Shown here piece by piece: positions 29,100-32,000 of a DNA stretch of 64,000 bases. Positions within the stretch are counted from its first letter, which is position 1. Each line of letters opens with the position of its first letter. The position numbers were made by a program. Source of the stretch: Escherichia coli (GTDB lineage Bacteria; Pseudomonadota; Gammaproteobacteria; Enterobacterales; Enterobacteriaceae); assembly GCF_009931435.1 (NCBI RefSeq), contig NZ_CP043414.1. One strand, 5' to 3'.

Positions 29100-32000
29100 T
29101 AATGGGCGATATTCTGAAACGGCGATTGTCGTGAGAACAGAATGGTTGCATCAGAATACAGATATAAAAAAACCGACATGACAGTCGGTTTTTTTATTTT
29201 TTCCGCCCAAGACTTGGTGGTTCCGGGCAGAAATGAAACAGTCCTCATCTAGCAAGTGAATTATAAGTCAGGATGCCTACATATTCAAACAGCTATGTTG
29301 GCGATACAATCCCGACGCTAGTAGTGATACTGCCTCAAGGGATTACCGCAGTGCGGAAAAGTACTTTTAAGTCCTGGTCAGGATACAGGTGGTGCTGATT
29401 CTGGTGCTCTAATTTGGAGAGAGGCAGTCCTCATCTAGCACATGAAGAAAATCATAGTTACAGGCAACGTAAGGGTAAGCTGTGATTGTCTTTCTCCCTT
29501 AAGGGAGCAACGGATGAAAACTTTTCTCGATAAAGTTCTCATCGTTCTTAAGGCGCTAATCGCGCTGCTGGAACTGATCCGTCAGTTTATTGAATAACTG
29601 AGGAAACGTAGCTAAGGCCGAAGGTTTACCACCTTCGGCCTTTAAAAAAACCGACATGACAGTTGGTTTCAGATTTATTGCCAAAATGCACACTGTTCAT
29701 GCCGGATGCGGCGTGAACGCCTTATCCGGCCTACGGTTAAGTGCAGTTTTGTAGGCCTGATAAGACGCGCCAGCGTCGCATCAGGCAATCTAACGCCTGT
29801 CATCACCCCGCAAACTGCCTGAACAGCGCCTTACCCTTAACCAGTCGCGCGCCCAGCCAGCCGCCGAAAAGTGACAGCAGCAGCGCACCGCTACACGGCA
29901 ACACAATCCACAATCGCCAGTCTGGCTCCCACGGGAAATCAAACACTTTCGCCTGCAGTACCGCCAGCGCCGTTTCCGCACCAATTGCGGCCACCAGGCC
30001 GGATACAAACCCGAGCATGGCGAACTCACACCATAATGTCGTGCGCAGCAGCTTTTTCCCCGCACCGAGTGTGCGCCACACCACCAGCTCCTGATGACGC
30101 TGACGCATTCCCACCTGCACCTGTGCCAGCAACAGCAACATACCGCAGGCGGTGACCAGCACCACCATCACTTCCAGCGCCCGACTTACCTGCTCCAGCA
30201 CCTGACCGACCTGTTTTAAAATCGCGCCAATGTCTAACAGGCTAATGGTCGGGAACTGGCGGTTGAGTTGCGTCAACATGCCGTTGCCATTCTCCCAGCG
30301 GAAACTGGTAAGCCAGCTCTGCGGTTGCCCGTCTAATGCCCCTTCCGGGAAAATAAAATAGAAATTAGGCCGCAGACTTTCCCAGTCCACTTTGCGCAGG
30401 CTGGTCACTTTAGCGCGGAACTCCTGGGTATCGCCCATAAAAGTCACGGTATCGCCGAGGGCAACGTTTAAGCGTTTCGCCAGCCCCTCTTCCATCGATA
30501 CTTCATCGGCTTTTGGCGGCCAGTTACCGGCGACAATTGGATTATGATCGGGCCGCGTATTTTGCCAGGTGAGATTGAGTTCGCGATTGAGCGCCTCATC
30601 TTCATTGCCTTCTGTCGGCTTATCGTTAATCGCCGTCAACCGCGCCCGCACTACCGGATAAAACGATTCCGGGACTATTTGATGTTCCGCGAGGAACGCT
30701 TTTAGCGGCGTAACCTGTTCTGTGGCGATGTTGATTAAAAAGTAGTTCGGGCTTTCTGGCGGTAGCTGCTGTTGCCAGCGGTCGAGCAGATCGCCACGCA
30801 ACACCAGCAACAGTGCCAGCAGCATAAAGGAGAGCGAAAATGCCGAAAGCTGGCTTAACGTTGACCACGGCTGACGTAACAGGCGGCTAACCGCCAGGCG
30901 CAGAGGTAGCGATTTCAGCGTCATGCGGCGAAGTACATTCAGCAGCATCCAGCCCAGGACACCGCACAGCAAAGCCAGTACTACCGCGCCCGCCAGCACC
31001 GCCCAGAGCAGCATACTGCCGCCCATCAGTCCGGCGAGCAGTAGCACAACCACCACACTGACAATCGGCAGATAAAACTTCAGCGGCCAGACGTTTGCAA
31101 CCACATCATTACGTAACACGCGTAAAGGCTGCGTTGCCAACAACAGGCGGTATGGTCGCAGCCCCACCAGCAGCGAGATGACCGTCATGGTGCCAAGCGC
31201 CCACAGCCATGGCCAGAGGCTGGCAGGCGGTAGTGCGGCAGGCAGAACGGGCTTGAGCAGCACCATCAACACGTTTTCGAACAACAGGCCTATCGCCCCG
31301 CCGGTAACGGCTGAAAGCGCCAGCACCATCAGCCACTGACCGACGATTAGCTTACGCAGTTGCGCTCGCCCAGCCCCCAGCGTTTTGAGGATCGCCACCA
31401 GATCGTAGCGACTACGACAGTAATGATTCATCGCCACCGCCACCGCCGCCACCGCCAGCAGCAAGGTCAGAAGCGCCGAAAGCAGCAGAAACTGTTGCGA
31501 GCGTTCCATCGATCGCCCCAGCGCGCCTTCGTCCTGTTCCAGACCGTACCAGCGTTGTTCGGGTTTAAGCTGAGGTAACAACCATTTCTCATAGCCGTCG
31601 AGCTGGTTCTCGTTGCCGCCGAATTTATAACGCCAGGTGACCCGACTCCCCGGCTGCACGGCTCCGGTTTTATCGACATCCGCCAGATTCATCATCAGAC
31701 GCGGGGCCATCTGGAAGGGGTTAAAACCGGAATCCGGTTCCTGAATCACTTCTCCGGCAATCCGCAAGGTGGTATCGCCCACGTCAATGGTGTCGCCCGT
31801 TTTCAGGTTAAGCAGTGCCATCAAGCGTGGGGCCAGCAATACGCTGCCCGCCTGCGGTTTCAGGCCTGGAGGATTGGTTTGCAGATCGCCATACATCGGG
31901 TAGATATCATCCACCGCTTTGACGTTCGCCAGCTGCGGTGTGTCGCCCGCAAAAGTCATCGTGGCGAAAGTCAGCTGCTTGCCGACTTTCAGGCCGCGCT

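Follow-up and report, generated by a model that had tools for sequence, protein, structure and literature searches.

The interval between mnmH and ybbP in Escherichia coli holds, as read from its sequence, a chromosomal dinQ-like (dql) type I toxin-antitoxin module, a member of a known family for which toxicity and rescue are predicted in this paralogue, and the module is bracketed by two nearly identical hairpins. The explanation that we consider probable is that hairpin 1 is the terminator of the Agr antitoxin sRNA, that hairpin 2 is a later copy of it, and that in rare strains the module was lost cleanly by recombination between the two copies. Positions refer to the window, the whole 64,000-nt stretch of E. 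coli DNA that was analysed (contig NZ_CP043414.1 of assembly GCF_009931435.1), and the features are collected in Table 1.

Table 1. Features of the mnmH-ybbP interval, numbered from the first base of the window
Feature	Position	Strand	Basis or remark
mnmH (selU/ybbB), upstream flank	28008-29102	+	364-aa ORF; PGAP mnmH at orthologous loci
Left stretch, part of the 570-bp segment	29117-29163		Missing from zero-copy alleles (empty allele L004, E. albertii)
Hairpin 1 (contains repeat copy 1, 29165-29191)	29164-29197		Perfect 14-bp stem, 6-nt loop; terminator-like on both strands
Agr-family antitoxin sRNA gene (predicted)	29164-29252	-	Rfam RF02891 AgrB, 53.6 bits, E 4.9e-08, full model 1-84
sRNA 5' end, complementary to toxin 5'UTR	29239-29254	-	16-nt exact direct repeat with 29425-29440
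Promoter-like site for sRNA (TTGAAT, 17-nt spacer, TATAAT)	29260-29288	-	10/12 consensus positions; consensus match only
Antisense target in toxin mRNA 5'UTR (predicted)	29425-29440	+	16-nt exact match to the sRNA-side repeat
DinQ-family toxin ORF, 27 aa, MKTFLDKVLIVLKALIALLELIRQFIE	29514-29597	+	NCBIfam NF041472 toxin_DinQ, 40.9 bits
GC-rich hairpin, toxin mRNA's own terminator (predicted)	29614-29642	+	12-bp perfect stem
Hairpin 2 (repeat copy 2)	29643-29669		26/27 identical to copy 1; begins one base past the GC-rich terminator of the toxin
Right stretch, end of the 570-bp segment	29670-29686		Absent in L004 and E. albertii; kept beside the single hairpin in single-copy alleles
REP/BIME elements (context only)	29693-29790		Three inverted repeats; sub-threshold Rfam naRNA4 matches built on REP sequence
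ybbP, downstream flank, convergent with mnmH	29803-32217	-	804-aa ORF; PGAP annotation of orthologues

A repeated hairpin brackets the module

The original prediction was that near-identical terminator-type sequences bracket the module, and this was borne out. A repeat search of the window gave a 27-nt direct repeat, TAAAAAAACCGACATGACAGT[C/T]GGTTT, with copies that are spaced 478 nt apart and identical at 26 of 27 bases. The sole mismatch, C29186 in copy 1 and T29664 in copy 2, was used as a diagnostic site. Both copies are hairpins with the identical loop ATGACA, and together they enclose the complete toxin-antitoxin module. A search of the whole window with the 26-mer, allowing up to three mismatches, found only these two sites, and a chance repeat was rejected because the expectation in 100 dinucleotide-preserving shuffles was 0.00.

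Past the 27 nt, local alignment gave no significant homology on either side of the copies (shuffles reached the two scores in 246/5000 and 2274/5000 cases). Two apparent extensions were dropped since they were not significant in the shuffle alignments: GAAACG...ACAGAT, on the left side of each hairpin with the same 48-nt spacing, and ATTT.TT..GCC, on the right side of each. By eye the hairpin also seemed to be flanked by a 5-bp target duplication (CAGAT), an impression with nothing in its support.

A dinQ-like module with an unannotated antitoxin

The toxin ORF scored above the cut-off of the DinQ family model (30 bits) and below that of DqlB (24.5 against 35). Its orthologues are named DinQ by PGAP, and homologues retrieved with the 51-aa ORF as protein query carry Pfam PF28061. 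Both the start codon and the Shine-Dalgarno sequence (GGAG, 29503-29506) line up with the start of K-12 dinQ, and the 5'UTR aligns with the dinQ and dql UTRs with many invariant columns. The GC-rich hairpin sits in the family alignment at the same position as the dinQ/dql terminator hairpins; together with hairpin 2 it folds at -29.8 kcal/mol. Between 29100 and 29700 no LexA box (CTG-N10-CAG) was found, while K-12 dinQ has CTGTATGATTATCCAG. The toxin is thus probably not SOS-induced, and because the box is lacking, the PGAP name 'damage-inducible' is unsupported for the copy between mnmH and ybbP. On these alignments the predicted toxin is 27 aa long, not 51 aa as annotated, the putative Agr-type antitoxin sRNA is unannotated, and the locus represents a dinQ-like paralogue that lacks a LexA box.

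On the opposite strand, the match to the Rfam AgrB family was well above its gathering score of 40. The corresponding RNA folds at -33.9 kcal/mol (z -4.9), and the promoter-like site has the end of its -10 element 7 nt upstream of where the match begins. The 16-nt repeat shared by the sRNA and its target lies inside a 22-nt direct repeat, and because the sRNA is on the opposite strand this direct repeat amounts to antisense complementarity. Across eight modules the sRNA-side and target-side segments co-vary, with 10.1/11 matches within a module and 6.4/11 between modules, a result that was reached by 1 of 20000 permutations. The sRNA, with an expected length of about 85-90 nt, would be transcribed leftwards from about 29252 and end at hairpin 1, and its 5' end would pair with the 5'UTR of the rightward toxin mRNA; these termination and RNA-pairing roles are predictions.

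Hairpin 1 as the predicted terminator of the sRNA

Hairpin 1 folds at -16.4 kcal/mol on the plus strand (z -6.6) and -17.5 kcal/mol on the minus strand (z -8.1), and its 14-bp stem carries the tail of an intrinsic terminator, U7 or more, on both strands. It aligns to the terminator of the Rfam AgrB model and to the K-12 agrA and agrB terminators. The stem A7CCGAC/GTCGGT7 was found at the end of every agr gene examined, i.e. those of K-12 dinQ-agrAB and of the Salmonella, Yersiniaceae and plasmid modules. Among these, agr genes on a Salmonella ICE, on Yersiniaceae chromosomes and on a K. aerogenes F-type plasmid share the stem of hairpin 1 and have different loops. In the family alignment, the dinQ/dql homology starts exactly at TAAAAAAACCGAC. 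Hairpin 1 is accordingly annotated here as the predicted Rho-independent terminator of the Agr-like sRNA itself. With A-runs and T-runs on both sides it would also be in a position to keep mnmH transcripts from running on into the toxin gene.

Hairpin 2 as a probable later copy of hairpin 1

Hairpin 2 is considerably weaker than hairpin 1 (about -8 to -9 against -16 to -17.5 kcal/mol), with z-scores of only -1.1 to -1.7. On the plus strand the 8-bp stem contains a G.U pair, folds at about -9 kcal/mol and is followed by only UUU and then CAGAUUUAUU; on the minus strand it has an A.C mismatch and a U7 tail and folds at about -8 kcal/mol. An Agr-type hairpin abutting the toxin terminator was absent from the other family modules examined (K-12, Salmonella, Yersiniaceae and plasmid) and from the closest relative (L100). 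Because hairpin 2 has the same loop as hairpin 1, starts one base after the toxin terminator and is lacking in the other modules, it is best read as a lineage-specific copy of hairpin 1. It would have arisen within the module lineage as a 27-nt copy. The original prediction had also offered two independently required terminators as an origin for the pair, and this found no support, copy 2 being a sequence copy of copy 1.

Selection may still act on the pair, since a role of this kind concerns maintenance and not origin and is compatible with the explanation given above. Both hairpins would then be kept as terminators that isolate the module from its convergent neighbours: hairpin 1 would block read-through from mnmH, and hairpin 2 would either assist the toxin terminator as a second barrier on the plus strand or, on the minus strand, stop read-through from ybbP and the REP elements. 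The positions fit such roles, as do the U-tails of hairpin 1 on both strands, the U7 tail of hairpin 2 on the minus strand and the plus-strand pairing of hairpin 2 that is kept through the G.U pair. Hairpin 2 also carried the same T in 14/14 occupied alleles read; the whole module is highly conserved, however, and the conservation of hairpin 2 alone therefore says little. The low stability of hairpin 2 argues against insulation, as do its short plus-strand tail of three U's, the A.C mismatch in its minus-strand stem and the other family members that do without such a hairpin beside the toxin terminator. Hairpin 2 is a putative terminator at most, and we regard insulation, with these roles for the two hairpins taken jointly, as unlikely.

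One version of the origin of the copy is that the module was once duplicated in tandem, or was followed by a second agr gene, and that hairpin 2 is what remains of the second unit. Arrays are formed in this family: K-12 has agrA and agrB in tandem, and on a Salmonella IncFII plasmid a 1.7-kb stretch contains five agr-type hairpins and two dqlB genes, the first toxin being flanked by Agr hairpins. It also fits that hairpin 2 starts one base past the end of the unit. Against this, the similarity does not extend significantly beyond the 27 nt on either side, and at E up to 1 Rfam shows no trace of another agr gene on the right side of hairpin 2. Metagenome contigs, a small sample, were scanned with an exact pattern for a tandem junction, in which the toxin terminator would run into a complete hairpin with an extended T-run, and none was found. 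This origin is possible but doubtful. No allele lacking hairpin 2, which would read from the toxin terminator directly into CAKATTTATTGCC, was found among the metagenome contigs matching the flanks, where 7/7 keep the 26-nt hairpin (small sample).

Alleles of the site across Escherichia

The original prediction placed an Rhs element in the interval between mnmH (selU) and ybbP of K-12. This is correct, the element being RhsD, and the interval is variable. The module was present in 1331 of 5426 complete E. coli genomes, at one location per genome; ATCC 8739 is one strain that carries it. Relative to an empty mnmH-REP-ybbP spacer, a 570-bp segment (29117-29686) that includes both hairpins is either there or missing as a whole. 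The left stretch of the segment has no alignable homology to other dql modules, and O157:H7 retains 29117-29151 beside its IS/Rhs element. The copy number of the REP elements differs between strains (among alleles L002, L003 and L004). A toxin-dead allele with a 108-bp deletion was also found at the site, and the mnmH-ybbP spacers of Buttiauxella and Kosakonia contain unrelated hairpins.

A source of the exact module on a plasmid was rejected, as plasmid copies are only about 70% identical to it; three near-identical 'plasmid' records span 1.2-4.9 Mb and are probably chromosomes. A search for a phage source gave no phage match.

If the repeat were the footprint of an insertion, genomes without the module should show a single copy of the hairpin at the empty site. 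Such alleles exist but are rare, being found in 5 of the 5426 genomes and in one divergent Escherichia (L016), whereas the common allele that has neither module nor Rhs element (about 457 E. coli genomes, junction ...attctg|tgcac...) and E. albertii have no copy at all. Because these empty sites carry no copy, the repeat is not a footprint of the target site, and because both hairpins come and go with the 570-bp segment, neither of them derives from the target. The empty spacer would be the older state.

The six single-hairpin alleles consist of the left flank of hairpin 1, exactly one hairpin and the right flank of hairpin 2. At the diagnostic site, three of them have C and three have T, while in occupied alleles hairpin 1 had C wherever it could be scored. 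The single-hairpin alleles are nearest to different occupied alleles, with 8-9 differences per 1028 nt. In L016 the flanks of the single-copy allele have diverged, and because this lineage is about as divergent as E. albertii, the single-copy state is old there.

These alleles could alternatively be the ancestral empty site, with a single terminator hairpin between mnmH and ybbP that was duplicated when the module entered, e.g. through one crossover with a copy that was circular or carried by a plasmid. Their structure is exactly the one that such an event predicts, also in the divergent lineage with its diverged flanks, and the repeats bracket exactly one unit that is conserved in the family. 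This reading is nevertheless quite unlikely. The stem is the signature of Agr sRNA terminators on other replicons and in other genera, and a lone copy must therefore itself derive from a module. The zero-copy allele is common, and single-copy alleles are rare and divided between C and T; since they group with different occupied alleles, identical insertions would have had to occur repeatedly.

Precise deletion between the two copies fits better, and we read the six alleles as putative scars of such events. Slippage or recombination between 27-bp repeats spaced 478 bp apart would remove exactly one module unit and leave one hairpin between the outer flanks. The notion of a recombination footprint, also part of the original prediction, holds in the sense that the copies appear to act as recombination substrates. 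The direction given to these events follows from parsimony and from how the alleles are distributed rather than from a rooted tree of whole genomes, and the flanks are reshuffled by recombination.

It is also conceivable, if very improbable, that the nearly invariant Agr terminator hairpin is a recombination handle by which dinQ-like modules move. In that case recombination of hairpin 1 with hairpin 2 would release a 478-bp circle with one complete unit, the gain, loss and exchange of units would take place at the stem that plasmids, ICEs and chromosomes have in common, and single-hairpin alleles would be landing pads that can be used again.

Comparison with known type I systems

The closest parallel is dinQ-agrA/agrB of K-12 (PMC3567139; PMC5066626), which shares with the module a DinQ-family toxin of 27 aa with a single transmembrane segment, a divergent Agr sRNA with a 5' end that pairs, in the module by prediction, with a long toxin 5'UTR, the terminator stem A7CCGAC/GTCGGT6-7 and a GC-rich toxin terminator followed by TTTAA. 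Toxicity of the peptide and rescue by the sRNA have been shown in the literature for DinQ and for DqlB. The K-12 locus lies at arsR-gor and has two agr genes, whereas the module lies at mnmH-ybbP and has one. The module differs further in lacking a LexA box and in having the extra copy of the Agr terminator downstream of its toxin. Its complementarity covers 16 nt, compared with the 30-36 nt reported for dinQ-agrB and DqlB-agrB. According to Kristiansen et al. (2016, PMC5066626), dql genes are found on plasmids as well as chromosomes and may be present alongside dinQ; they are often missing from the annotation or given an N terminus that is too long. DqlB-agrB of pOXA-48 is a validated addiction module, in which compensatory mutations show that base-pairing is needed (PMC12365149). 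The module belongs to the same family as dqlA/dqlB and this pOXA-48 system, and none of the copies examined has a hairpin that abuts the toxin terminator.

Other type I loci of E. coli, such as LDR (ldr/rdl), QUAD (sib/ibs) and zor-orz, are tandemly repeated, and type I modules tend to duplicate locally, which gives direct repeats that are able to recombine. Those loci repeat whole units, while the module between mnmH and ybbP repeats only 27 nt and does not have the repeats spanning whole genes that define a tandem type I array. An analogy, and only that, can be drawn with solo LTRs, the single repeats that remain once a flanking pair of direct repeats has recombined: occupied alleles carry such a pair and the putative scar alleles have one repeat between the same outer flanks. 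Unlike LTRs, the repeats of the module are 27-bp terminator hairpins and not the termini of an element, and no recombinase or transposition machinery is involved.

Implications

A feature that resembled an insertion signature can thus be explained by ordinary genome evolution, and what is new is a modest detail, a duplicated Agr terminator, in a known family. The site occurs in several natural states: intact, toxin-dead through the 108-bp deletion, precisely excised with a single hairpin, never occupied and without a hairpin, and replaced by Rhs. Little is at stake in practice; the natural allele series lends itself to asking whether a type I module on the chromosome is addictive or dispensable.

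The bracketing repeat and the layout of the module

A repeat search of the window returned a 27-nt direct repeat, TAAAAAAACCGACATGACAGT[C/T]GGTTT, at 29165-29191 and 29643-29669, with the copies spaced 478 nt apart and a single mismatch between them, C29186 against T29664 (the diagnostic site). With up to three mismatches allowed these were the sole matches in 64 kb, where shuffles gave an expectation of 0.00, so that the near-identical terminator-like sequences seen around the module in the original prediction were borne out. Copy 1 is contained in a 14-bp perfect stem with T-runs on both strands (hairpin 1), and copy 2 gives an 8-bp hairpin (hairpin 2). 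Among strains (window, L002, L003, L004 and L018), the REP/BIME block on the ybbP side of the module differed in copy number and type and gave sub-threshold Rfam naRNA4 matches.

Features of the mnmH-ybbP interval (window coordinates)
Feature	Position	Strand	Remark
mnmH	28008-29102	+	
Left stretch, 47 nt	29117-29163		
Hairpin 1	29164-29197		after left stretch
AgrB match	29252..29164	-	Rfam 53.6 bits, gathering score 40, E 4.9e-08, full model
Promoter-like TTGAAT-17-TATAAT	29288-29260	-	
Small ORF	stop end 29597	+	
GC-rich hairpin, 12 bp	29614-29642		
Hairpin 2	29643-29669		begins one base beyond GC-rich hairpin
Right stretch, 17 nt	between hairpin 2 and REP elements		
REP elements	29693-29790		
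ybbP 3' end	29803	-	

Identity of the module

Translation from ATG 29514 gives 27 aa, MKTFLDKVLIVLKALIALLELIRQFIE; this peptide passed the NCBIfam toxin_DinQ profile (40.9 bits, cut-off 30) and failed the DqlB profile (24.5, cut-off 35). The orthologous ORF is labelled DinQ by PGAP, and some PGAP annotations carry a 51-aa ORF starting at 29442 (29442-29597). The family alignment places the start at ATG 29514, with the SD GGAG at 29503-29506, and this is predicted to be the true start rather than 29442. At its 5' end the predicted sRNA has 16 nt of perfect complementarity to 29425-29440 in the toxin 5'UTR, within the 22-nt direct repeat D2. Compared over eight modules (E. coli, Salmonella, Yersiniaceae, plasmids), the sRNA side and the target side matched at 10.1/11 within modules and at 6.4/11 between modules, and the observed value was reached in 1 of 20000 permutations. 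The excess within modules is the covariation signature of a co-evolving antisense pair, which the sRNA and the toxin 5'UTR are predicted to form. No LexA box was found in the module, unlike in K-12 dinQ. The module therefore belongs to the dinQ-like (dql) family described in Kristiansen et al. 2016 (PMC5066626). The plasmid member DqlB-agrB has been experimentally validated (PMC12365149). The PGAP product name 'damage-inducible' comes from dinQ, and the module copy has no LexA box; the label is thus a misleading name, on an ORF that is sometimes over-long.

Origin of the two hairpins

Both agrA and agrB of K-12 terminate in AAAAAAACCGAC-TTTGC-GTCGGTTTTTT, and the same stem with other loops was found in agr genes of a Salmonella ICE, two Yersiniaceae chromosomes and a K. 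aerogenes F-type plasmid. In the eight-module alignment the left limit of family homology was exactly TAAAAAAACCGAC, and the right limit was the toxin GC hairpin with its TTTAA tail. The stem shared at agr ends and the start of homology at TAAAAAAACCGAC indicate that hairpin 1 is the predicted terminator of the antitoxin sRNA itself. With folding energies of -16.4 kcal/mol (+ strand) and -17.5 kcal/mol (- strand) and U-tails in both directions, it also appears positioned to block mnmH read-through into the toxin gene.

In an alignment of dinQ-like modules (A1, columns 79-112) the Agr terminator stem, A7CCGAC/GTCGGT6-7, was near-invariant from E. coli to Yersiniaceae and plasmids, whereas its loop and the remaining sRNA were divergent. 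Terminator stems as a rule co-vary freely, so the stem sequence may be under constraint for some other reason. Stem mutants of hairpin 1 were seen as GTCGGG in the toxin-dead allele L001 (1617-1646) and GTCGTT in L003 (1617-1646).

An Agr-type hairpin adjoining the toxin terminator was absent from the compared family modules and from the closest relative found, on a TraW/TraX plasmid-like contig (L100). Because hairpins 1 and 2 have the lineage-specific loop ATGACA in common, hairpin 2 is probably a within-lineage copy of hairpin 1. It is predicted to be weak: the + strand fold, of about -9 kcal/mol, contains a G.U pair and has just three U's, and the - strand fold, of about -8 kcal/mol, has an A.C mismatch and then U7. 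It could plausibly be the remnant of a decayed downstream unit, as the family does form arrays, such as agrA/agrB in K-12 and, on the Salmonella IncFII plasmid NZ_CP022492 (L112 1-1800), a 1.7-kb array in which two dqlB toxin genes lie with five terminator hairpins of agr type. However, similarity between the two sites ends with the 27 nt, Rfam detected no agr remnant to the right of hairpin 2, and a pattern scan of metagenome contigs found no tandem junction. Among the seven metagenome contigs matching the flanks, no allele lacking hairpin 2 was found.

States of the site across genomes

Genomes were counted by coverage thresholds on BLAST summaries, here and for the zero-copy and single-hairpin alleles below. 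Of 5426 complete E. coli genomes, 1331 had the module, chromosomal in every case and single in nearly all, and in 1101 its identity to the window was 99% or more. In K-12 an RhsD element replaces the entire mnmH-ybbP spacer, in agreement with the Rhs element named for this interval in the original prediction, and nothing of the left stretch is left. In O157:H7 TR01 (L007 4001-4051) a truncated IS (ylbG) and an Rhs element directly abut 35 retained nt of the left stretch (window 29117-29151); the Rhs/IS insertion therefore struck an allele already bearing that stretch.

Zero-copy alleles, with neither Rhs nor module, read mnmH...attctg/tgcac...REP and have no hairpin, and their junction is common to about 457 E. 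coli genomes and E. albertii. Compared with them, 29117-29686 (570 bp, both hairpins within) is a single indel with blunt junctions. In the distant outgroups Buttiauxella and Kosakonia, mnmH and ybbP are convergent with unrelated terminators. The hairpin was thus not supplied by the target site, and the zero-copy allele argues against the suggested insertion footprint, in which the empty site would carry one 26-mer.

Different cargo was found at the mnmH-ybbP junction in E. whittamii (L017, about 3.5 kb), Escherichia sp. MOD1-EC7003 (L020) and Citrobacter sedlakii (L026), and several Citrobacter have a 377-aa ORF there, putatively a porin. This variety bears out that the site is a hotspot for insertions.

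Single-hairpin alleles

Scanning the genome collection with MnmH turned up a divergent Escherichia, L016, whose flanks differ by about 7% and which has exactly one hairpin, between the left flank of hairpin 1 and the right flank of hairpin 2. This arrangement recurs in five complete E. coli genomes. The diagnostic base was C in three and T in three of these six alleles; in occupied alleles hairpin 2 had T in 14/14 and hairpin 1 had C in 13/13 scorable. The single-copy alleles do not cluster together by flank distance: PapM-32-1 and PapRG-04-4 were nearest to the occupied O145:H28 and 14EC033 (8-9 differences per 1028 nt), and AR_0077, GF131 and LR-28 formed a looser group close to the occupied GF4-3. 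Most simply, these alleles would have arisen by two or more independent, precise deletions between the 27-bp repeats, with polarity set by parsimony in recombining flanks. The diagnostic base would then come from either copy, depending on where the slip or crossover resolved. Taking these alleles as ancestral sites, with repeated insertion of the module at identical junctions, is less parsimonious and gives no reason for an Agr-type terminator without an agr gene.

Variation within the module

A recurrent 108-bp deletion (window 29425-29536; L001, L109), bounded by the 9-of-10-nt repeats cAGTcCTCATC and aAGTtCTCATC, takes out the antisense target, SD, start codon and first toxin codons and retains the agr gene and both hairpins. 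A sample of 40 evenly spaced rows of the module-bearing listing showed it in about 6, which suggests that roughly 15% of module-bearing genomes would be toxin-dead and antitoxin-only. Across six occupied alleles, that of Escherichia sp. E1V33 among them, the module (29115-29690) had 3-6 differences per 576 nt, against 9-50 per 1028 nt in the mnmH/ybbP flanks (28550-29102, 29803-30282). This far greater conservation suggests that the module is under strong constraint or has spread recently through recombination.

The module itself belongs to an already described and PGAP-labelled family and is not a new kind of system. The literature consulted on dinQ, agrB and dqlB describes neither a bracketing terminator copy nor single-hairpin scars in natural strains, and these two features are a modest evolutionary detail.
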